A DNA stretch of 35,385 bases from a virus (taxonomy: Duplodnaviria; Caudoviricetes), in the IMG/VR virus record IMGVR_UViG_3300036797_000127, positions 1-35,385 of that record. One strand, 5' to 3'. A program made the position numbers and the translations under genes. Shown here one piece after another: positions 13,929 through 33,768 of the stretch (positions are counted from its first letter, which is position 1; the number at the start of each line of letters is the position of its first letter). Below the pieces are notes generated by a model. The model searched no databases and had not been told where the DNA came from. It saw nothing but the letters and a program-made list of their open reading frames with translations.

Positions 13929-14153
13929 ATGCTGCGACGTCACTTTATTAAGTTGCTCCCTTTTCTTCCGATGGTCGGATCTAAGCTGAGCAACACAGTT
14001 GATCCGCGACGCGTTGACGAGAACTTGAATTTTCATGGTGAGCCGTTCATTCCTCTTATGGATGCGGTCATGGATTACCCAACTCGCTATAAAATTGGTG
14101 ACGAAGTGAGTGGTCTTGACGGGCAAATTCGAAAAGTTATCGAAACTAATTAG
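13929..14153 (+). CDS. Antisense 74-aa moron containing a baseplate-hub C-terminal mimic
   Basis: Fills the TMP-Dit gap on the opposite strand; NFHGEPFIPLMDAVMDYP versus hub NFRGEPFIPGMDAILNYP. Confidence 0.75.
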   Translation: MLRRHFIKLLPFLPMVGSKLSNTVDPRRVDENLNFHGEPFIPLMDAVMDYPTRYKIGDEVSGLDGQIRKVIETN

Positions 14154-17100
14154 CCTCTCGCCCTGGCAAGTTCCATTTGCGCATGCAGCCCCGCATAGAT
14201 TTGGCTCTGCGAGCGCCGGAAGCTGTCGTGATCCGAAACGCCGTGCACATGGAAGTTGACCGTCGTTTCCCTCGCGCCACCGCCGCCAGGCGATGAGGAC
14301 GACGGTGAAGCGGAACGCGCTGCGCGGCCGATAAAGACCTCTGGATGGTTCTCGCCAACGACGTAGGAATGGCCGGGGGTTACGTCGCCGCCCGCGGCGC
14401 GGAATCCGTCAAAGGCCTGTCCGACGCCCGCCAGTGGATTATTTTCCTGCGAGGATTTCATCAATGAAAATGAGGGAATGATCGTTCCTGAACTTTTTGG
14501 CACGAACAGTTCCGGGCCTTTTTCACCAACGATGTATGCGCTGCCGTGATCCGCAGGTCCGCCCGAAGCGCGGAATCCGGCGAATATATTGAAAATATCG
14601 GAAAACAATCCTCCACCAGACCCAGGGTCGCTTGAATCTCCTCCGCCTCCCCCTCCGCCAAACAAACCGCCCAGCATGGAAAGTAGTCCGCCGCCTGATG
14701 TCGATCCGCTCGAATCTCCTCGACTGGAATCGCTAGACGTTCCTCCGAACAGGCCGTCTAACGTCGAAAGAAGGCCGCTCCCACCGCTCGAATCCGACTC
14801 TGGACTGAGTAGGGACATAAGTCCGGTCGAAGATTTCCCCGAACCGAAACCAGGACCGAGAGGAAGATTCCCGGTGAGATCGCCGAGAATGCCACCGCCG
14901 CTGTTATCGGTGGCCGCGCCGAAAACAGAAGATCCAGCCGTCGCCGTCAGAACATATATGGGATCGTTTGATGATCCGGTCGGAGCCGACCCGCCTCCGC
15001 CTGTTTTTATGCCGAATACTTTGGCAATCGAACCGATGATTCCGCCGGGGCCAGAGCTTGTCGTGTTACCAGGGGAAAGGAAGGGCGGAGTCGTCGCTGT
15101 TCCGGGAGCACCCAGTATCGAACCGTACGAACGGCCGCTACCGAATCCCGGACCGAGCGGAAGTTTTCCAGCTCCCACTTCCTGCACGAAGAGCGGGTTG
15201 CCGGACGATTCACCGCGCTTTCCTTCAAGGCCAGGAATCTTGATGCCGATGGCTTTCTCAAGCGAGCCGGCTGCCGATTGAAGTTGAATCTTGATCATCG
15301 ACTCCGCGAAGCCCTCGAACATCTGCTTGAAGTTCGATTTCCCGGTGACGATCAGCTTCGCGATATTGTCTTCGACTCCGCCAATCGCTTTGTTCATGGC
15401 GTCGGCGATTTTTCCGCCAACATCCTCCGCATCGAGCGCGACCTGGTTGAGAACCGCGTGCATCTGTTCGCCGAACGAGCCGACCTTGATAGCCGCCTGG
15501 TCCCATTGCTCGATTTGCTGGCGCTGCGCGTCGTAAATCGCTGCGTCGATGAGAAGCGTCGAGGCTCCCTCCGACTGGATCAGCTCGCGGACCTGTTCAA
15601 GTTTCTGAATCCGATTGTTGTATGCAGCGGCGATGTCGTATTGCGCGGCTTCTTGAGCGATGGCGGTTGCGTACGCTTGATTGCTTTGCGTGCGGAGCGC
15701 TTCATTCTCCGCGTTAATTTGTTCCACGGATGCGCCCGGGTGCGCCTGTGTCCAGCGGTAAAGTTCCAGCGCGACCTGCGCGGCACGCACGGCCTGCTCA
15801 TTTTCGAGATAGGCGTGATTCAGGGCTTCGACGAGCGGAGTCGCACCTTGTAATTCTGCGGCCTGTTTGTTGAGTTCGGCGTCGATTCCCAAATCGCGAA
15901 GCGTGGCCGCCTGCGTTTTCAGAGCGCTGAATTTCTCCGTCGCCGCATCAATCGCTGCGGAGAGTTGCGAGAGGGCTGGAGACGGTCCCTGTCCTTGCTC
16001 CTTGCCGACAATGCCGATTCCAGGAATCGCCTGAAGCCGCGCGTATTCATCGCGCAGGTCGTCGATCTTGTCTTTTTCGGCTGCGAGTTGCTTGTCGATT
16101 TCGGCGGAGGCGACGGCCGCGGGACCTTTGCCGTACGAGGCCGAAACTTCAGTCAGGGAAGCGATTTGCTTGTCGAAGTCGTCGGATTTCTTCTGAAGCT
16201 CATCGCTCGTCGAGCTGCTGGCCTTCGCAGCGGCAATTTGCGCATAGAGTTTTGTGAACTGCGGAGCGGCAGCATCGAGCGCCGCCAGTTCCTTGCGGAC
16301 ACCAGCGATGCGCGCAGAGATCCTTGCAGATTCTTCGCCCGTCGAGGTCGAAAGCTGCTCCTGTAGCGATTTCTGCTCCGTGAGCAGCCCGTTGCGAACG
16401 TCCTGAACTTTCTGCGCAGCTTCGGCGGCCGCCTTCTGGAACATCATGGCCGCCGTGGTGCGGTCCATCGCTCCGGCGAGCGAAAGCTCTGCGGTCGCTT
16501 GGGCCTGCAACTTCGCAAGGTCTTCGCCAACTACGTCCTTGGTCGATACACCCAGCCCTTTGCTTTTTGTGGCCGTGTCAATATTAGCAGAGCCCTGCCT
16601 GTGGACTGGAACCATCCATCCAGTTCGATCGCCAGGGCTTGTATTTTTTACAAACGCGGCAAAGTCTGACCATATTCCCTTAGAGCTCTGAACGTCATCC
16701 TTGAGGCTGGAGGTCCATTTCGAGGAATAAGTTTTTAGTCCTTCGGCGAATCCTTTAAAGTTTACAGTTAGCAACGCACGGGATAGATCATTCGCCAATT
16801 CGACGATGTATTCCAGTTGGGCGCCAAATCCAACAAGCGCGATCGCCGCTTGGTTTACGGCCGTCCAGATTGCGTCCAGCGGAACGGCGATCATTCTCGT
16901 CAGTTCAGCAATAGCGTGCGCCCATTTGTTTGCTCCTTCCGCGCTGGATTCAAAAGAACTGGTTATGGCGCTCAGAAGCGGGAGTAAGTCGCGCGCGAGC
17001 GTCAGTGCAAATCCGTTGGCGATAGCATCGAGCTCCCCGAGTTTTAGAGAGAACTGATGGGCAGCTTGCGCCGTTTCTCCGTTTACGACTATTCCGAATC

Positions 17101-17857
17101 GCGCAGCCGACGCCATCATTCCGTCAATTCCGGCTTTTCCAAGATTCAAGGCCGGAAGCAGCGCCGCGCCGTTGCGTCCAAACAGCTCAATCGCCAAGGC
17201 TGTCTTCGCTACTCCATCCGGCATAGATGCGAACTTGCCAGCGATGTCTGCAAAGATTGCTTCGGTTGATCGAATCTGTCCGCTTGAATCCCTTACCGCA
17301 ATTCCGAGGCGCGTGTAAGCGTTGATGGCTCCAGCCGGAGCCGTCGCCGCCGCGAACGCGCTTTTGCTCATTTTTTCCAAGCCGCGAGCCATTGTCTCTT
17401 GATCGACGCCGACTTGCCTTGCCGCAAATCCAAGGCCGCTAAGAGCTTCGGTACTGACGCCAGTGCTCTGCGCCAGTTCGTAGAGCTTCTCTGCCGACTG
17501 GGCCGCATGAACAGCAACTCCAATGGTTGCGACTTCTATCGACGCGATGGCAGCGGTAGCTCCAGCCCCAAGCGACGCGATTGCCCCGAGAGCCGATTTG
17601 GTCGATCCGAATTCCTTCATCGCGGACGACGCAGCTCGCCCCATTGTGGAAAGAGCAAAACTCAACTGGCTAATGGCTGGATTGAAAGAACCGAATGCCC
17701 CGAAGGTTTGCGAGGCTATGCGTTGGAGAGAGGAAAATTCCTTGGAGATATTTTTTGCGGATTGCTGTGCGGTATACGCAGCTTTGGAAAGAGCGTCGAC
17801 GAACTTCGCTGTGTTGGCGTTCAGTTCGACGTAAATGCTGCCGAGGGACTGAGGCAT
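14150..17857 (-). CDS. Tape measure protein
   Basis: 1235 aa, Ala-rich helical; LGSIYVELNANTAKF N-terminus; C-terminal GFRASGG...YIVGEKGPELFVP motif. Confidence 0.93.
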   Translation of the reverse strand: MPQSLGSIYVELNANTAKFVDALSKAAYTAQQSAKNISKEFSSLQRIASQTFGAFGSFNPAISQLSFALSTMGRAASSAMKEFGSTKSALGAIASLGAGATAAIASIEVATIGVAVHAAQSAEKLYELAQSTGVSTEALSGLGFAARQVGVDQETMARGLEKMSKSAFAAATAPAGAINAYTRLGIAVRDSSGQIRSTEAIFADIAGKFASMPDGVAKTALAIELFGRNGAALLPALNLGKAGIDGMMASAARFGIVVNGETAQAAHQFSLKLGELDAIANGFALTLARDLLPLLSAITSSFESSAEGANKWAHAIAELTRMIAVPLDAIWTAVNQAAIALVGFGAQLEYIVELANDLSRALLTVNFKGFAEGLKTYSSKWTSSLKDDVQSSKGIWSDFAAFVKNTSPGDRTGWMVPVHRQGSANIDTATKSKGLGVSTKDVVGEDLAKLQAQATAELSLAGAMDRTTAAMMFQKAAAEAAQKVQDVRNGLLTEQKSLQEQLSTSTGEESARISARIAGVRKELAALDAAAPQFTKLYAQIAAAKASSSTSDELQKKSDDFDKQIASLTEVSASYGKGPAAVASAEIDKQLAAEKDKIDDLRDEYARLQAIPGIGIVGKEQGQGPSPALSQLSAAIDAATEKFSALKTQAATLRDLGIDAELNKQAAELQGATPLVEALNHAYLENEQAVRAAQVALELYRWTQAHPGASVEQINAENEALRTQSNQAYATAIAQEAAQYDIAAAYNNRIQKLEQVRELIQSEGASTLLIDAAIYDAQRQQIEQWDQAAIKVGSFGEQMHAVLNQVALDAEDVGGKIADAMNKAIGGVEDNIAKLIVTGKSNFKQMFEGFAESMIKIQLQSAAGSLEKAIGIKIPGLEGKRGESSGNPLFVQEVGAGKLPLGPGFGSGRSYGSILGAPGTATTPPFLSPGNTTSSGPGGIIGSIAKVFGIKTGGGGSAPTGSSNDPIYVLTATAGSSVFGAATDNSGGGILGDLTGNLPLGPGFGSGKSSTGLMSLLSPESDSSGGSGLLSTLDGLFGGTSSDSSRGDSSGSTSGGGLLSMLGGLFGGGGGGGDSSDPGSGGGLFSDIFNIFAGFRASGGPADHGSAYIVGEKGPELFVPKSSGTIIPSFSLMKSSQENNPLAGVGQAFDGFRAAGGDVTPGHSYVVGENHPEVFIGRAARSASPSSSSPGGGGARETTVNFHVHGVSDHDSFRRSQSQIYAGLHAQMELARARG

Positions 17858-18235
17858 TTAGCTGGCCTGTGCCTTGTTTTGCGGGAAGGAACTAAAAAAC
17901 TTTTTAAACGATTCTGCGCGCTGCTCTTCGGACTCCTCTTCCAGCGCCTCGAAATTAAACACCAGGCTTGCAACGTCGGCTGCAGGAAACGCCGCGAAAC
18001 CGTCCAGTTGCACCGGGCCAAAACTATATTCCTTTATTCCATTCGGAAGTACGATCTTCATCGAAACCAATGCTTCGGAGCGTATTGCGCGCATTACCTC
18101 CATTTGACCGGGGTCATCTGGGATATGGTTGGCTTCAATTTCCACGCGCTTGCCGATCTTCAGCGACCTTACTTCTCCTATGTTTTTGCCATTGATCGTG
18201 AATACGCTGCCGGAGGAGCAAAATGCTTTTGACAT
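17858..18235 (-). CDS. Degenerate tail-tube paralogue with a gpGT-like C-terminus
   Basis: MSKAF/IGEV/NHIPDDPGQ/KIVLP match the tail tube MSQAF/VAEV/NFIPGNATQ/KITLP; TAAATG coupling on both sides. Confidence 0.7.
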   Translation of the reverse strand: MSKAFCSSGSVFTINGKNIGEVRSLKIGKRVEIEANHIPDDPGQMEVMRAIRSEALVSMKIVLPNGIKEYSFGPVQLDGFAAFPAADVASLVFNFEALEEESEEQRAESFKKFFSSFPQNKAQAS

Positions 18236-18628
18236 TTAACTTGCCCTCGCTTTCTCTTCCATTTCTATTTTTTTATCTTGCAGAACTTTCATGGAACTAA
18301 ACCAGCCCTTGAACTGCTCTAACTTCTCTTCTTCTGTCGGTTCGCGGTCTCGCTCCGGATCGGCAATGAAATCATCCGGCGAAACAACCGGCGCGTTCCG
18401 ATCTCGAAACGGATTCCCATTGAACACCGCAGCAGCCACGACGCCGGCACACAGGAGCGCGTGACGTTGTTCACGACTGCGGCGCGTGAGCAGCGCGTCA
18501 ATCTGCGCCGAGGTTAACTCGCCGATTTCGCTTTCGGAGACTCGGCAGTCGTAACGAGCGATGGCCCAGAGCTCGAGCCATCCGATGGCGACGGGTTCGG
18601 CTCTTCCGTCGCCTCGCTGGCCAAAGGG
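18236..18628 (-). CDS. Tail assembly chaperone gpT segment (reached by -1 frameshift)
   Basis: The -1 frame reads WLELWAIARYDCRVSESEIGELTSAQIDALL...GVVAAAVFN...SPDDF, a typical gpT pattern. Confidence 0.85.
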   Translation of the reverse strand, partial: PFGQRGDGRAEPVAIGWLELWAIARYDCRVSESEIGELTSAQIDALLTRRSREQRHALLCAGVVAAAVFNGNPFRDRNAPVVSPDDFIADPERDREPTEEEKLEQFKGWFSSMKVLQDKKIEMEEKARAS

Positions 18629-19044
18629 TCCGCGTCACCGCCCTCCGCCGCGGCTTTTTCAGCCCGTTCACGTTCACGGCGCAATGCATCGGCCTGATCT
18701 TTTGGCAGATAGAGCAGATAGGCGTCCCATAGCGCACGGACGGCTTTCTCTTGATTCGTTCCGTCAAGCATGGAGCCGACCGCTTCGATCCCATCCTCGG
18801 CAGCGAATTTCGGCTGATGCGGCAAGAGCGCGGCCCACAGCATCACGCGCAATACGCGCGCGGATAGCTTGATCCAAATGTCGAAGCTAAGAGCCGTCAG
18901 GCCCGTTTTTTCGCTGATTTCGGCGAGGACGTTCAGATTGAAGGAGACGCGGTAGGCTTCGCTGAAGGAACCCCTTTCATCAGTGTATTCGATGATCAGG
19001 GGAACGGACGGCGCGATGCGCCGCCGCAGAGCGGAATCCGACAT
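18514..19044 (-). CDS. Tail assembly chaperone gpG
   Basis: Position between tail tube and TMP; contains the slippery site in DPL codons. Confidence 0.85.
   Translation of the reverse strand: MSDSALRRRIAPSVPLIIEYTDERGSFSEAYRVSFNLNVLAEISEKTGLTALSFDIWIKLSARVLRVMLWAALLPHQPKFAAEDGIEAVGSMLDGTNQEKAVRALWDAYLLYLPKDQADALRRERERAEKAAAEGGDADPLASEATEEPNPSPSDGSSSGPSLVTTAESPKAKSAS
18622..18628 (-). promoter_or_regulatory. -1 programmed ribosomal frameshift heptamer C CCT TTG
   Basis: X XXY YYZ in the correct phase (GAC CCT TTG); the -1 frame is open to 18236. Confidence 0.85.
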
Positions 19045-19085
19045 ATTTCACCTCGTAAAAAATTGGAATTATATAATTGGCTCGG

Positions 19086-19328
19086 TTACTTTCCCTTGGG
19101 CCGCTCGCCAAGGCCTTTTTCCACAAGTATTTCTGCCACATCCTCGACATGAAGGCAGTCCACCATGCAGGCAAAGTCGTTGGCGGGCTGAATCGTTGCG
19201 ATGGAGCCGTTGCAATAGTCATTGCCTGGAGTAGCGCTGTGTAACACGCCGAAGGAAACGACCTTTCCGCCATCCAGCTTGACGATTTTGTCACCGTTCT
19301 TTGCCTCTCGTCCGTTTCTGTAATGCAT
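19086..19328 (-). CDS. Small hypothetical protein inserted in the tail operon
   Basis: Strong RBS AAGGAGG; MHYRNGREAKNGDKIV...YCNG...CMVDCLH. Confidence 0.8.
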   Translation of the reverse strand: MHYRNGREAKNGDKIVKLDGGKVVSFGVLHSATPGNDYCNGSIATIQPANDFACMVDCLHVEDVAEILVEKGLGERPKGK

Positions 19329-19453
19329 TGTTCCTCCTTCGCTTCCTCGTGGGAGTTAACTGTGTAATTCCCGAAAAAATCTAAGCAGACTTCCCGGAAC
19401 ACGCCGGAGGTGATCGGTGGTTCCGCCGCGGTCTGCCAGCGCGGAGTTCTTTG

Positions 19454-19870
19454 TTACCAGGTAACGGTCATCGGCCCGGTGACTTTCAGCTTCACCGAGC
19501 GCGTGGCCTGTTTCTCGACCGGCAGATCGAAATCCTTGGACGAGACGTAGGCGCGGAATGTGGCGTTCCCGAGCGTGCTGGGCAGCGTGATCTTGTAGTA
19601 GCCGAGCGTCTGATTGTTGAAGTCGGTCTCCAAGATTTGCTGCGTGGCGTTGCCGGGAATGAAGTTGCAATCCACGGCGATGTCGCCCGAATCCACGAGC
19701 GTTGCGAGGAACTCGCGGAAGCTGGACGGACTGTCAAAATTCGTGACATCTGCCAAATCCGCCTTGGAGCCGGTATTTTGGACCTTCGTCACTTCGGCGA
19801 CGGTCGTATAGGTCACGCCGTCGGGCGAGTGCTGAAACAGTGTTGCGCGGGGTGCGAATGCTTGGCTCAT
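19454..19870 (-). CDS. Major tail tube protein
   Basis: VAEV...DVTNFDSPSSFREFLATLVDSG...NFIP...ATFRAYV...LKVTG. Confidence 0.9.
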   Translation of the reverse strand: MSQAFAPRATLFQHSPDGVTYTTVAEVTKVQNTGSKADLADVTNFDSPSSFREFLATLVDSGDIAVDCNFIPGNATQQILETDFNNQTLGYYKITLPSTLGNATFRAYVSSKDFDLPVEKQATRSVKLKVTGPMTVTW

Positions 19871-19896
19871 CTAAAAATTCTCCTTTGTTTTTGTTT

Positions 19897-20328
19897 TCAA
19901 GTCCCCAGATCCCGAAAGGCGATCTTCATATCCACCGAAGCGTTGAAAATGAACGGCGCATCCTCGAACGTTTCCATTTCGAGAACGCATTCCATGTCAT
20001 CGACCTGAGAACCGTCAACCATCGTCCCGGTGAAATTTTCAAGCGTTCGACGCACGGCGCGCTGCAATTTGGCGGCGTCCCCCGGCGTCGAGCCATAGCA
20101 ATTAAACTGGTAGCGCACAAAGCGCAGCGCGTCCGGACCATCCATCGTCATCAGTGACTCGCCGGCAATCTGCGAGAACACAACCGCAGGCATGGCCGCC
20201 GCCTCGGGCATCTGCACCTTGAAAATCCCGGTCGTTTTCATCGTTTCGGTGCGGGTCGCGGGCGTTCCGACAATGGCCGTGACGGCGCTTGCATTCGCGA
20301 GAACCGCATAGAGTCCGTCGGCGATCAC
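19897..20328 (-). CDS. Tail terminator (DUF3168-like)
   Basis: GLYAVLAN...PAVVFSQI...RYQFNCY; position before the tail tube. Confidence 0.8.
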   Translation of the reverse strand: MIADGLYAVLANASAVTAIVGTPATRTETMKTTGIFKVQMPEAAAMPAVVFSQIAGESLMTMDGPDALRFVRYQFNCYGSTPGDAAKLQRAVRRTLENFTGTMVDGSQVDDMECVLEMETFEDAPFIFNASVDMKIAFRDLGT

Positions 20329-20801
20329 GATGTACGCAGTCCCGAATCGTTCAGAGCTTCGCGAATTCCAGTGGTGAATCGGTCCAGCACTTCCTGTTTG
20401 CGGGCCTCGAATGCTGGACGCACGAATGGATAGGCGGGCATCGCAGGGTAATGGCGTCCGCGCGAAGATACGCCGCCCTTGCGCCCGAATTCCAGAATCA
20501 CAGCCCAGAAGAGATTGTAGTTTCCAGCCTTCGCCGCCGGGCCCGCCTCGGCGGAGCCGGACAGGTCGCTCTTGACTCTCGTGCGGACGGCAATATTCGC
20601 GGCCAGAAGTCCGAAATCATGATCTCCCTTGCCCTTGTGATGGGGGCCGCGACGAACCCTGCCGCGCATATCTTCGGCCCAAGGTTCGACCGCGGCGACC
20701 ATTTCCCGCCGAATAATTCTCTTCGCCGCGCGCGGAGGAAGTTCGCGCAGTGCGCGATCCAGTTCGGCAAGCCCGCTAATCTTGAATTCGATTTCAGCCA
20801 T
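20325..20801 (-). CDS. HK97 gp10-family tail completion protein
   Basis: ISGLAELDRALREL...LEFG...MPAYPFVRPAFE. Confidence 0.88.
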   Translation of the reverse strand: MAEIEFKISGLAELDRALRELPPRAAKRIIRREMVAAVEPWAEDMRGRVRRGPHHKGKGDHDFGLLAANIAVRTRVKSDLSGSAEAGPAAKAGNYNLFWAVILEFGRKGGVSSRGRHYPAMPAYPFVRPAFEARKQEVLDRFTTGIREALNDSGLRTS

Positions 20802-21129
20802 GCTCAGGAGCCCACACAATTCCTTGCGCGTTGCACGTCCGGCAGGGATCGAATACGACGGCCCCTTCGGAAATCGCGGGCGCCGTCATCGAATAAAATC
20901 CAGAAATCACTTTTGTCACGCCCTTACACACGGGACAAAGGAACGGACCTCCGCCCGAGTGCGCTGCCTCGTCGTAGAACCGCTGTGGCGCCTCCGCAGC
21001 GGAAGCGGCCCGCGAAACGATGTGCTCTGTAACACGTTCCGCCACAACCCTGCTCGCAACCTCCGGCAACATCGCCTCCGTGTGAAGGATGTTGGCGATT
21101 TCAGCGACGAATTTTGGATCAGTCTCCAT
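20794..21129 (-). CDS. Inserted zinc-finger protein
   Basis: CPVCKG...CRTCNAQGIVW; TGATG overlap with the head-closure gene. Confidence 0.7.
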   Translation of the reverse strand: METDPKFVAEIANILHTEAMLPEVASRVVAERVTEHIVSRAASAAEAPQRFYDEAAHSGGGPFLCPVCKGVTKVISGFYSMTAPAISEGAVVFDPCRTCNAQGIVWAPEHG

Positions 21130-21500
21130 CAAGGCTCGCGGCTCGAATTGTCACGCTCGATGCACAAGAGGTAGAGCACGTGACGTTGTTCGTTGGGATT
21201 CTCGACGGATTGAATCTGAAACTGCCGCGGCATTCCGGTTCCGGGATCGTTAAACCACGCGTTTTGCTGCGCCTTGATTCCCGCCTGGTAGCGCATGGTG
21301 ATTTTATGCGTGACCTCGCTAACCTTCTGCTGCGCCGAATACAGTTCTCGACCGGTTAGCGATTCAACCGCAGCCCGCACGGTTGCGACTGGAGTTTCTT
21401 CGCCGGGCTTGATGTTTCCCGAGGCGTCCTGCGCCAGCGTCGGTTGCATGATCTGCACGACGTGGCGCAGTTGGCCCGCCCGAATGCGCGCGCGCGGCAT
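21129..21500 (-). CDS. Head closure (stopper) protein
   Basis: RAGQLRHVVQI...GRELYSAQQ...THKITMRY. Confidence 0.9.
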   Translation of the reverse strand: MPRARIRAGQLRHVVQIMQPTLAQDASGNIKPGEETPVATVRAAVESLTGRELYSAQQKVSEVTHKITMRYQAGIKAQQNAWFNDPGTGMPRQFQIQSVENPNEQRHVLYLLCIERDNSSREP

Positions 21501-21940
21501 TAGTTTGGCGTCGTAATCACCGCGAACATGATCGCGGCGTTGCTACAGGCCAGATGGACTGTGCCGTCCGTTTGCCGGAAGCCAATGGTGCCGTTGCGGA
21601 AATTAAACGCGGAGAAATTGCCAGCCGCCACGGAATAGGTTGTGATGTCCTGCGTGCGGCCGTATTGGTCGGCAACCGAGGAAATCGTGATCGTATACGG
21701 TGACATGCCGCTGTTCTGGACGAGCAGAATATCCCGCCCCGTTATGGCGAACTTATTTCCGTTGGACACGTCGCAGGCGGTGAAAGCGAAGTCGAGGGTT
21801 CCTGAGCCCGGGGCGCCCACAAGATAGGGGCCGAGCGGCGTGATCGGCGTCAGTGAAGTTTGCACGGCAAATGCCGCCACGGCGCACAAAAGGAACATGC
21901 AACAAAGTGCTACGACTTTTTTTGCTGCTGGGTATTTCAT
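21500..21940 (-). CDS. Signal-peptide-bearing virion decoration-type protein
   Basis: RBS AAGGAG; MKYPAAKKVVALCCMFLLCAVAAFA|VQ; DVSNGNKF..TGRDILLVQNS...ITISSVAD.YGR. Confidence 0.8.
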   Translation of the reverse strand: MKYPAAKKVVALCCMFLLCAVAAFAVQTSLTPITPLGPYLVGAPGSGTLDFAFTACDVSNGNKFAITGRDILLVQNSGMSPYTITISSVADQYGRTQDITTYSVAAGNFSAFNFRNGTIGFRQTDGTVHLACSNAAIMFAVITTPN

Positions 21941-22137: not shown

Positions 22138-23016
22138 CTATTTCGTCGGAGCGAAATCCAAAACGCGTTCGCTCCAGATGAGCCGCTCGTACCAATCCAG
22201 ATCATGGAGCTGGTCCAGTGTGACGGCTTCTCTGTTCTCGTAGGACACGCCAGTGGCCAGCATCACAGCGACCTTTAGGTTCGCCGGCGCTGCCGCACCA
22301 TCATTCCCGTAACCAGCCGTGAAAAAAATCTGTACCGCATTCGGAACGCGCAATGTTTCTGGCCAGAATGTGCCGTAGGCGGGGTAGAGACGCGGAGGCT
22401 CCGAATCATTGTCCTCGAGGAAATCTCCCGCCGGCGCGACGCCCATGTTCGTCCAGGTCAAATCCCCGTCCGCCGTGGTGCCTGCGGGCGTGGCGTTCCA
22501 AGAGGGAACCGTCGCTCCTGATTCAGACTCATTTCCCGTTTCCGTTTCCGTGACGGCCGAGACCTGCTGGAGGTTCCCGTTCGGGTCCACGATCTGGTTG
22601 CCGATGTCGTATTCATTTTTAGCGAGCCACGCCGCCGGTGCCGGAAGTAACGTATGAGATTGCTGATCCGTCCCCACGTACACGATCTTCTGCACGTTAA
22701 CGAGGGGGCAGCGCAGCAGTTTGATCTGTTGGCGCTCATCATAGTGATGGCCGCGGGCATAACGTGGCGCCTGGTAGAAATATCCCGTGCCGAAATCGCC
22801 AAAATCATGCAGTCGAGGAAAATGATCGTGGGATTGCCGGTAGAGCTTGTTCACCAGGCTGCGCCCCGAGTCGCTCTCCACTGTCTCTCGCGCGCTCTGA
22901 AGGTACAGTTTAATTAGTTCGTCATCTTCACTTATTGTGACGCGCAAATGGTTCTTGAGCGTGGGGAGCGAGACCGGTTCGGCGGCCGGCGGAGTTTGTA
23001 TCTGGATCGCGCTCAT
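22138..23016 (-). CDS. Head-tail adaptor (HK97 gp6-like) with an inserted domain
   Basis: PAAEPVSLPTLKNHLRV...VQIFFTAGYG...YENRE. Confidence 0.9.
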   Translation of the reverse strand: MSAIQIQTPPAAEPVSLPTLKNHLRVTISEDDELIKLYLQSARETVESDSGRSLVNKLYRQSHDHFPRLHDFGDFGTGYFYQAPRYARGHHYDERQQIKLLRCPLVNVQKIVYVGTDQQSHTLLPAPAAWLAKNEYDIGNQIVDPNGNLQQVSAVTETETGNESESGATVPSWNATPAGTTADGDLTWTNMGVAPAGDFLEDNDSEPPRLYPAYGTFWPETLRVPNAVQIFFTAGYGNDGAAAPANLKVAVMLATGVSYENREAVTLDQLHDLDWYERLIWSERVLDFAPTK

Positions 23017-23257: not shown

Positions 23258-23734
23258 CTAGGCGGTTTCGGTCGGGCTCTGCGTCTCGGAGTAGCGCGCG
23301 CCGCTCAATACCGCGGCAATCGCGGCGATGACGGAGTTTGAGCCGTTTGTGAGCTGCACCTGGACGTAAGGCGACCCGTCGGCGAGCTCGTTGGCATCCA
23401 GCTCGATGACGTAGAAGATCCCGTCATTGGCCGAAGGCGTATAGCCGGCCGCGGCAACCGCGGTGCGTGCGCCGAGGACGTCGTGTGATGCGCCGGCGGT
23501 TTCCTGCTTATAGATGCTGAACGGGATCGCGACCGGATTGGAGCCGCTCCCGTCAGTGCACTGATTCACGATGATCTTTGTGAATGCAGCGGCGGAGACT
23601 CCGATCAGCACGAGAATACTCGCGTGCTGATACTTCTTCATCGAGAACGCCTGCCCTGTCACGCCGCCGGTAACATCCACCGGAGCGGCGACCTGGACGA
23701 CGTGTCCCTCTTCTGCGATTACAAAACCTTTCAT
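23258..23734 (-). CDS. Putative head decoration / accessory protein
   Basis: Directly after the capsid gene; strong RBS; beta-rich, ends VLSGARY. Confidence 0.75.
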   Translation of the reverse strand: MKGFVIAEEGHVVQVAAPVDVTGGVTGQAFSMKKYQHASILVLIGVSAAAFTKIIVNQCTDGSGSNPVAIPFSIYKQETAGASHDVLGARTAVAAAGYTPSANDGIFYVIELDANELADGSPYVQVQLTNGSNSVIAAIAAVLSGARYSETQSPTETA

Positions 23735-31980: not shown

Positions 31981-33768
31981 CTACCCTAAAAAGAGCCAGT
32001 CGCTCGCTTTCGCGATTCCAGGCTTTGGATATTCCACAAACCCAGCCGTGCGCAGCGCGCCCAAAGGATTTGAAAATGCGCCGCCGCGCTCTGAGTAACC
32101 AGCGCGATCGGCGAGCTCCAGCTTTGACAGTTCGCATCCAGCTTCCAGCAAAACAGAAAGAATCTTCCGTTCCGGACCGCGCAGAATCGCCAGAATGCGC
32201 CGGTGAATCTCTTCCTGATCCGGCGCAGGCTCAACTCCTGCCGTTGTGGTCCCTTCCTCTGTGAGTTTCACTCGGCCGCCGCCGGGATATTCAATCAATC
32301 CCATGCTCCGCAACGCGCCAAGAGGATTGCTAAACGCGCCGCCGTTCGGCGAATATCCGGCCCACGCAGCAACCATCTCGCGCGGCGGTTCGTGTTTGTC
32401 GATCGACGCGAGCTCGGCCAGCGCTTTCAGAATTTTCTTGTGCGGGCCGCCCAGATCGCCATTCATTTCGGCGTCGCCAGGTTGTTTTGATAGCATCGGA
32501 CGTGGATGTTGGGGTTGTGGTGAAAACGCCGTACCCCGCTCAGGGCTTCGTCGATCACCTAACGTTTGAAGGCTTTCTCCTTTTTGGATTTCCACGCCCG
32601 AAACTTTTGCGTTCAATATTTTCAAAGCCGCGCGAACGCCGCGTTCCCGATCGAGAGCGAGAAAGCCGGAACCAGAGTTGACGGCCTCATGAACGATCCC
32701 GCGCCACTTATCGCCGCGTTGTGCAACCATTTCCATGAAGGGTTGCAACGCTGCATTTAACTCTCTAATTCCAATCTCGCGTTTGACGGATTTTGCATTC
32801 GTTGGCTGCACTTTCTGCACCGGAGCGCTGCGCAATTGCGCCTTAAGAGATCGAATCTCTGTGCGCAGCTCCGTTTCCGTCTTGGCCTTTTCCTCCGCAG
32901 CTTTGGGCAAATCGGCCAGCTTGGGCAGGAGCTTCGCGATCTCTTCCGGCGCCGGCGGCGGCTCGGACGCATGCTTCGAACTCCCCGCTTCCGGATGCGA
33001 CGTCTCGACCGCGCCAACTTTAAGCAGAATTCGCTCGTCCGCGATCGCAGGTCCCAGCGCATAAAAGCTGCCGCGCTCGAGGAGTTTAATTTCATCGAAA
33101 AACTTATGCTGCTCCGTGCCGTAAACTCCAAGGGCGTCCGCAGCGCGCTTTCGATCGATGTCAATGAACGTGCCGCCAATCATCACATTCAGCATTTCCG
33201 CCGCGGCATCCTTGCGAAACTTTCCAAGCCGCTGAGTCGCTGCTACCAGGCAGAATCCTCGCTTGCGGCCGCGTGTCGCCATGCCGATGACAGATTCCGA
33301 GGCGAGCGATTCGCCGGCGCCCTTTTCCGGGCAAAATACGTGGGCCTCGTCGAGCATAATGATGCAGGGATGCCAGAGGTTTTTCGGGGCGTCGATCATG
33401 GCCTCGAAAAACTTCTGCACCCATTCATGCCGTGACGACGGCTTCATTTCGTACAAATCGCACACGGCCGGCGCGCGCAGCTCCAGTAGCTTATGCGCTA
33501 CAAGAGCAGCCGAGCGAGGATCGGCAGGAGTCTCGCCGCCTTTACCCACGAGCACATAGCCAAATTTCTCGCGTAGACTCGCAAATTCGCCTTCCGGATC
33601 GAGAATGATCACCTGGACTTTGCCGAAGAGCTGCTCCGCCAGTCGGCGCAAGAGCCACGATTTTCCCTTTCCGCTATTCGCCTGGATCAGCAAACGCGTG
33701 CGCAGCAAGACATCAAGGTCGAGCGAGATTTTTTTGCCGTCAGATTCGCCGATCAGTATTTTGCTCAT
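31981..33768 (-). CDS. HerA/FtsK-superfamily ATPase (DUF87-like) with two C-terminal winged-helix repeats
   Basis: QANSGKGKS (Walker A), ILDPEGEF, IMLDEAH (Walker B), RGRKRG, ATQR; duplicated AGYS..GGAFSNPLGALR..G..EYP. Confidence 0.88.
   Translation of the reverse strand: MSKILIGESDGKKISLDLDVLLRTRLLIQANSGKGKSWLLRRLAEQLFGKVQVIILDPEGEFASLREKFGYVLVGKGGETPADPRSAALVAHKLLELRAPAVCDLYEMKPSSRHEWVQKFFEAMIDAPKNLWHPCIIMLDEAHVFCPEKGAGESLASESVIGMATRGRKRGFCLVAATQRLGKFRKDAAAEMLNVMIGGTFIDIDRKRAADALGVYGTEQHKFFDEIKLLERGSFYALGPAIADERILLKVGAVETSHPEAGSSKHASEPPPAPEEIAKLLPKLADLPKAAEEKAKTETELRTEIRSLKAQLRSAPVQKVQPTNAKSVKREIGIRELNAALQPFMEMVAQRGDKWRGIVHEAVNSGSGFLALDRERGVRAALKILNAKVSGVEIQKGESLQTLGDRRSPERGTAFSPQPQHPRPMLSKQPGDAEMNGDLGGPHKKILKALAELASIDKHEPPREMVAAWAGYSPNGGAFSNPLGALRSMGLIEYPGGGRVKLTEEGTTTAGVEPAPDQEEIHRRILAILRGPERKILSVLLEAGCELSKLELADRAGYSERGGAFSNPLGALRTAGFVEYPKPGIAKASDWLFLG

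Follow-up and report, generated by a model that had tools for sequence, protein, structure and literature searches.

Tail tube proteins are essential building blocks of phages and also triggers of bacterial immunity. The loop between strands beta2 and beta3 of siphophage tube proteins is reported to mediate the stacking of rings, and its removal stops tube formation in T5 and SPP1 and leaves single rings in YSD1 (PMC8718954). [quoted passage not shown] Some Avs sensors are reported to recognize tube proteins by their fold (PMC13728456). DSR2 is inhibited by the phage protein DSAD1, which is described as having no fold in common with known structures and as acting allosterically (PMC10981675). 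Counter-defence genes are reported to be placed among late genes (PMC10884400; PMC11364771); anti-Tab, which sits in a late operon, is one such gene (PMC10884400). The lambda-like siphophage tubes (PF16461, Phage_TTP_12) include gpV (7T2E/8K36), YDC107 (9MFE), monocin MttP (8QHS) and RcGTA (6TBA).

The DNA analysed here (35,385 nucleotides, hereafter the window) comes from a provirus record. The phage is a lambda-like siphophage whose complete set of head and tail genes is encoded on the minus strand. Its tail genes run in the order terminator, tube, an 80-residue open reading frame (ORF), gpG, the gpT frame, a 125-residue ORF and the tape measure gene (Table 1). The original prediction, made from the sequence only, had taken the 125-residue ORF for a tube paralogue that lacks the polymerization loop and is fused to a copy of the gpGT C terminus.

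Table 1. Features of the window that bear on the 125-residue ORF.
Feature	Position	Strand	Basis
125-residue ORF	17858-18235	(-)	Open frame between gpT frame and tape measure gene
Loop-less tail tube core (ORF residues 1-98)	17942..18235	(-)	hhalign, AlphaFold2, fold matches to solved tubes, family alignment
gpT-like C-terminal tail (ORF residues 96-125) and stop	17858..17950	(-)	Best match among 703 window pieces
TAAATG, gpT-frame stop abutting ORF start	18233..18238	(-)	Sequence
TAAATG, ORF stop abutting tape measure start	17855..17860	(-)	Sequence
T frame of tail chaperone gpGT, open -1 frame	18236..18634	(-)	PF06223, E 1.5e-4 (under cut-off); phrog_337, E 0.0016
Candidate -1 slippery site CCCTTTG in gpG	18622..18628	(-)	Putative frameshift
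Tail chaperone gpG	18514..19044	(-)	phrog_2115, E 2.9e-6; position
True lambda-like tail tube protein	19454..19870	(-)	PF16461, E 1.7e-14 (over cut-off)
Tube residues 33-60, absent from the ORF family	19691..19774	(-)	Profile alignment, tube model, family spans
Tape measure protein	14150..17857	(-)	PF09718, E 3.5e-12; PHROG tape measure families
Portal/protease junction, empty in the window, occupied by a family member in relative L181	26345..26352	(-)	

The host is probably an acidobacterium (Acidobacteriota), since close relatives of the tube protein of the window come from Candidatus Acidiferrales records. A public contig is identical to the window over positions 16800-20091, and the window may itself derive from the run of that contig; the joined form without the 125-residue ORF was not found in the two runs searched. 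The GC3 of the ORF is 0.56 versus 0.79 for the tube gene, which is a weak sign because the tape measure gene is also low (0.60).

Several other genes of the window were also noted. The 80-residue ORF between tube and gpG (19086-19328, minus strand) is a second optional gene of the same module; it is missing in the two closest tube relatives (L002 and L003), belongs to a cluster of 3 sequences and has no match in PHROG, Pfam or PADLOC. Between the head-closure and neck genes lies a 112-residue ORF (20794-21132, minus strand) with two CxxC pairs, for which only weak zinc-finger-like matches were obtained (PF23733, E 1.2e-4, under cut-off). The head-tail adaptor (22138-23016, minus strand) is long, with 292 residues that match PHROG in separate pieces, and contains an extra tryptophan-rich middle stretch, which we take, as a guess, to be a carbohydrate-binding-like insert. 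Structural-looking genes flank it on either side (21500-21940 and 23258-23734, minus strand), one matching phrog_16194 "tail protein" (E 1.1e-5) and the other without a clear family. A 595-residue HerA/DUF87 ATPase (31981-33768, minus strand) is encoded upstream of the packaging genes.

Kinship with tail tube proteins

Compared as a pair, the 125-residue ORF and the tube protein of the same phage give a BLASTP E value of 8.8 at 19% identity, and there is no likeness between them at the DNA level. The four colinear motif pairs that had first suggested the relationship are all present in the sequence. Against shuffled controls, the pair is weak: the local alignment score is matched by 30 of 5,000 shuffles and the global score by 250 to 1,698 of 5,000.

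The kinship is established at the level of the family. A 14-row profile, made of the ORF and 13 homologues, was compared with 23 tube proteins using hhalign, which gave a probability of 97.0 and an E value of 1.2e-10; the alignment spans 92 columns and is interrupted by one gap of 28 columns. The AlphaFold2 model of the ORF (pLDDT 86.5) displays a core of a beta-sandwich and one helix, where strands 22-27 and 30-36 are joined by a short turn that replaces the beta2-beta3 loop. The best structural matches of this model are solved tubes, led by monocin MttP (Z 11.6, rmsd 4.3, 96 residues aligned), with the R4C tube (Z 10.9) and RcGTA (Z 10.7) among the further matches. Lambda-like tubes also head the Foldseek list (E 3.4e-4), and ESM Atlas models concur, with TM scores of 0.78 to 0.84 to predicted tube models over residues 5-98. 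The missing stretch corresponds to 28 residues of the tube (33-60) that lie between its predicted strands 22-33 and 63-70; the model of the tube itself makes a low-confidence excursion between the strands that match the pair of the ORF. The proposal of a tube mimic that lacks about 30 residues, the polymerization loop included, is thus borne out by profile, fold and a 16-member family, and the absent part is exactly the 28-residue beta2-beta3 loop. No Pfam family was found for the ORF at E<=1, phrog_41 was matched only at E 0.08, and there was no match in PADLOC or among PDB sequences.

A search of 1.84 billion representatives returned 17 matches at E<=0.001, comprising the ORF itself, 14 plausible homologues and two long proteins, P0030 (2187 residues, internal repeats) and P0041 (1084 residues, 8 stretches), which were dropped. 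With one further protein from a virus record, the loop-less family counts 16 members; P0039 was omitted from the first family alignment and included in the comparison of spans and in the tree. Between a conserved Glu and a conserved Asn, 16 of 16 members have a span of 16 to 17 residues, and 36 of 36 tubes one of 43 to 44. In a tree without an outgroup, the members group in a single clade, apart from the sampled tubes, with a bootstrap of 100; they had been picked by likeness to the query, which favors such a clade. On average, members are 31% identical to each other and 21% identical to the tubes, compared with 45% for the sampled tubes among themselves. The family has near-invariant residues of its own (Gly79), and its N- and C-terminal fusions vary. 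Two fused members were noted, one with approximately 190 extra N-terminal residues (L037, at G001:C1:1307-2203) and P0039 with 83 N-terminal and approximately 95 C-terminal residues; these stretches gave no Pfam or PADLOC match where they were scanned.

These data show that the ORF is real and tube-derived. Since at least 16 divergent proteins share the same deletion, it is not a recent broken copy, and a pseudogene or a chance ORF is ruled out by the 16 open members and the confident model. The word "paralogue" does not hold in the sense of a recent copy of the phage's own tube: such a duplication is ruled out by the 19% identity between the two proteins and the lack of DNA likeness, and by the 38 to 43% identity that the ORF shares with the two other members of known context.

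The family is rare. A word-index search returned the ORF alone, to which the profile added 4 others, and scans of loci that used a single protein as query found nothing. Of the loci picked out by a family motif, 1 of 3 from viruses held a true member and none of 119 from metagenomes did (35 of 64 parts covered). In a scan of the probable host order, run with no positive control, 0 of 401 genomes carried a member, and no match was found in 50,697 records of named phages.

Genomic positions and the gpT-like end

Gene context was available for 3 of the 16 members, and the three occupy different positions. In the window, the gene sits at the gpT/tape measure junction, with the predicted TAAATG coupling to gpGT and the tape measure gene present at both ends. 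In the relative L181, whose capsid, protease and portal are 76, 69 and 66% identical to those of the window, the member lies between portal and protease and overlaps both; it has no gpT-like tail, and the gene that follows probably has its ribosome-binding site within the last bases of the member. In G001, a 93-kb record, the domain comes after the approximately 190 residues mentioned above, to which it is fused. Approximately 71 kb separate it from a full tube of the same family, and it has ASCH, SLOG, NADAR, NUDIX-MazG and 7-deazaguanine-pathway genes as neighbors. No partner antidote gene common to the three contexts was found. Three positions in three contexts indicate the behavior of an accessory gene and not that of a tail part.

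A survey of the genes between gpGT and the tape measure gene in relatives found the ORF in 0 of 26 junctions, as read from ORF lists. The 33 related-tube loci contained no family member, the profile matching only tubes, in two pieces, and 32 of 32 related virus records were likewise without one, only 2 of the 32 being at least 90% complete. Other inserts are present at 7 of the 26 junctions. The near-identical L013 (6250-6522) and L015 (5947-5951) differ at this junction by an extra, unrelated 90-residue gene in the former, with TAAATG on both sides. Together, these inserts mark the gpT/tape measure junction as an insertion hotspot and, given that an unrelated insert has the same coupling, the TAAATG coupling of the ORF says nothing specific.

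Other arrangements were observed among the relatives. L022, L023 and L026 carry, 1.5 to 2.6 kb past the tube, a gene of 166 to 170 residues between gpT and the tape measure gene, which by its motifs may be a neck gene. A putative nuclease-like ORF follows the tube directly in L022 and L026. A related gene of 137 to 143 residues lies directly behind the tube in L005, L006, L007 and L034, and in L005 and L034 the chaperone genes are not within 3 kb after the tube.

The fixed place of the tube gene, between the terminator and the chaperone genes, is taken in the window by the true tube gene and not by the loop-less family. The ORF is probably an optional gene that is not part of the tail. In the titles and abstract openings that were searched, no description of natural loop-less tube paralogues was found; the family of mobile loop-less tube mimics is real and, apparently, undescribed.

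When the last 30 residues of the ORF were scored against 703 pieces of the six-frame translation of the window, the gpT frame came first (47, the next being 36). On a profile of the gpT ends of 19 relatives they reach 14.2 bits, a value attained by 0 of 1,994 scored shuffles, and at the DNA level the likeness is marginal (91 of 3,000 shuffles). The closest gpT ends are those of L003 (62), L010 (49) and the phage itself (47). The supposed fusion to a copy of the gpGT C terminus thus holds as a likeness beyond chance, but the echo is limited to approximately 30 of the approximately 130 T-frame residues, with the true G/T pair upstream, and the idea of a working gpT-domain fusion is weakened. A gpT-like end was found in none of the 14 other members (8 at 1.1 bits or less, 6 without a score). 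A conserved, functional gpT fusion as a family trait is ruled out, none of the 14 exceeding 1.1 bits. Because it was found in no other family member, the gpT-like tail is probably a junction relic, that is, a gpT 3' end captured in this phage lineage. A helix is predicted at residues 103-115, within this tail, and may have a binding role by analogy with the lambda T domain, which is reported to bind tube protein (PMC5009743).

Possible roles of the loop-less protein

Our tentative first choice is that the loop-less protein acts as a decoy of tube monomers, binding an immune sensor by which the host recognizes tube proteins but leaving that sensor inactive. It is suggested by the loop-deleted tube reported to bind DSR2 and not to activate it (PMC10981675), and it agrees with gene position and literature no less well than a poison does. 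The gene would move between gene junctions by recombination, and in this phage it would have entered near the gpT stop, with the gpT 3' end captured and the tape measure start kept coupled. Expression of the ORF would coincide with that of the late genes and roughly with that of the real tube. The product would be unable to stack into a tube and would bind a DSR2-like or an Avs-like sensor. This role is ranked above that of a poison because a phage with a poison among its late genes would put the assembly of its own tail at risk, while counter-defence genes fit there.

Several points argue against a decoy. In Acidobacteriota, the probable hosts, no tube sensor is known; a search for SIR2_2 in one genome of this group came back blank, which is uninformative. 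Coupling to the stop of the frameshifted gpGT would suggest a low output, and a position downstream of the tube gene would be poor for out-competing an abundant trigger. A decoy of this kind has no direct precedent, DSAD1 being reported as unlike any known fold (PMC10981675). Moreover, the contexts stem from just 3 of 16 members, and the single clade is favored by the choice of members from the query.

Also possible, and placed second, is that the tube fold was re-used for another accessory job, such as binding a host protein or blocking tails in the manner of Tab, or that the gene is a near-neutral passenger at permissive junctions. The family-specific residues and varied fusions would fit another job, and the acceptance of unrelated small genes by the same junction and the rarity of the family in host-order genomes and named phages also speak for this group of explanations. 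The passenger variant is opposed by the open frame, common core and same deletion kept in 16 of 16 members at approximately 31% mean identity which, together with the confident model, argue for selection on a tube-like surface.

The remaining explanations involve contact with tube rings, which was explored by structure prediction. A predicted complex of 4 copies of the phage's own tube and 2 copies of the ORF scored 0.37 versus 0.07 for the best control, with at least 94% contact agreement between runs and partner pLDDT of at least 78. Of 157 solved pairs, 116 passed the mark used, as did 2 of 215 mismatched ones; both of these mismatches, but only 18 of the 157 solved pairs, passed with scores of 0.60 or under. 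A pass can also arise because a complex is like solved tube rings. The prediction lends weak support to a mixed ring of the ORF with its own tube. This score, if real, favors ring binding over a decoy.

One such explanation is a tail poison against competitors, in which the protein would join the tube rings of another phage and stop their stacking, interfering as Tab or Tai do. Tube loop mutants of lambda and SPP1 are reported to be dominant negative (PMC9022992), the mixed-ring prediction would agree, and 19% identity to the phage's own tube would permit non-self specificity. However, the predicted partner is that own tube and not a rival's, and in 2 of the 3 contexts the gene is coupled inside a late operon, so that the protein would be made while the phage builds its own tail. 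Tab, in contrast, is described as made constitutively from the prophage and as needing an antidote (PMC10884400), and no antidote gene is common to the three contexts. A poison is therefore considered unlikely.

Least probable is an optional aid to assembly of the phage's own tail, nearest to the capper or initiator of the original prediction, in which loop-less subunits would form or seed single rings (as seed, cap or monomer sink) and the gpT-like tail would recruit tube protein. The hexameric rings reported for the YSD1 loop deletion (PMC8718954), the binding of tube protein by the lambda T domain (PMC5009743), the weakly supported mixed ring and the presence among the fold matches of short, heterohexamer-forming Hcp paralogues (9vnd, Z 9.9) would be consistent with it, but the absence of the ORF at 26 of 26 related junctions, the 2 of 3 contexts outside the tail module (portal/protease in L181, approximately 71 kb away in G001), the lack of a detectable gpT-like tail in all 14 other members and the terminator gene already present in the window (PF11367) weaken it.

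If the loop-less protein is a decoy, a wider idea follows, which we regard as possible but doubtful: phages would turn an immune trigger into an antidote by deleting the loop that both stacks rings and fires the sensor, making a mobile decoy gene. The present family would illustrate this in nature, and in this phage the chaperone end that was captured might serve as an additional bait. Two questions become testable with one small protein, namely whether trigger-derived decoys let phages evade sensors of structural proteins and whether phages use their own subunits to sabotage the tails of rivals. For annotation, the case is a warning that a tail operon may contain, besides the tube gene, another gene of that fold that is not structural.

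Comparison with known systems

The ORF resembles the PF16461 tubes in its beta-sandwich core with one helix, its colinear motifs and its Z scores of 10.7 to 11.6 to solved tubes. It differs from them in lacking the 28-residue beta2-beta3 loop and the C-terminal strand and in having a shorter first loop, and also in that it has no Pfam match, is optional and has no fixed position. While gpGT joins its G domain to a whole T domain by frameshift, the ORF has only approximately 30 terminal gpT-like residues. The minor Hcp paralogues of type VI secretion, described as forming heterohexamers (9VND/9VNE, 9QPE), share with it a short tube fold (Z 8.1 to 9.9). They join mixed rings, which for the ORF are weakly supported by the prediction above, and they are described as sitting in secretion loci and loading effectors; the window has no such locus.

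Tab/anti-Tab and Tai/Ati are also small prophage genes acting on tail assembly, with antidotes reported to be expressed with late genes (PMC10884400; PMC11364771). In these accounts, however, the blockers act on the tape measure protein and on the central fibre, are not described as tube homologues and are made in the lysogen, whereas the ORF is coupled within a late operon. A sigma-70-like site was absent from 17500-20000, as may happen with 1.1 +/- 1.0 such sites expected by chance. With DSAD1, the anti-DSR2 protein of SPbeta phages, the likeness is that of a small accessory beta protein of a phage that blocks a tube-sensing immune protein, a role that the ORF would have by analogy. No entry titled DSR2 or DSAD1 was among the fold matches listed for the ORF, unlisted families remaining possible. 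Unlike DSAD1, the ORF protein derives from the trigger itself.

A further parallel is with engineered loop-deleted tubes (SPR delta-Loop1; the YSD1, SPP1 and T5 deletions; the lambda loop mutants), from which the same loop was removed. The removal is reported to halt tube growth, to leave single rings in some cases and, for SPR, to preserve DSR2 binding while abolishing its activation. Those are laboratory constructs of a phage's own tube, whereas the ORF family is natural, diverged and separately encoded. A natural, mobile family has the very change by which laboratory mutants block the growth of tubes and silence DSR2.
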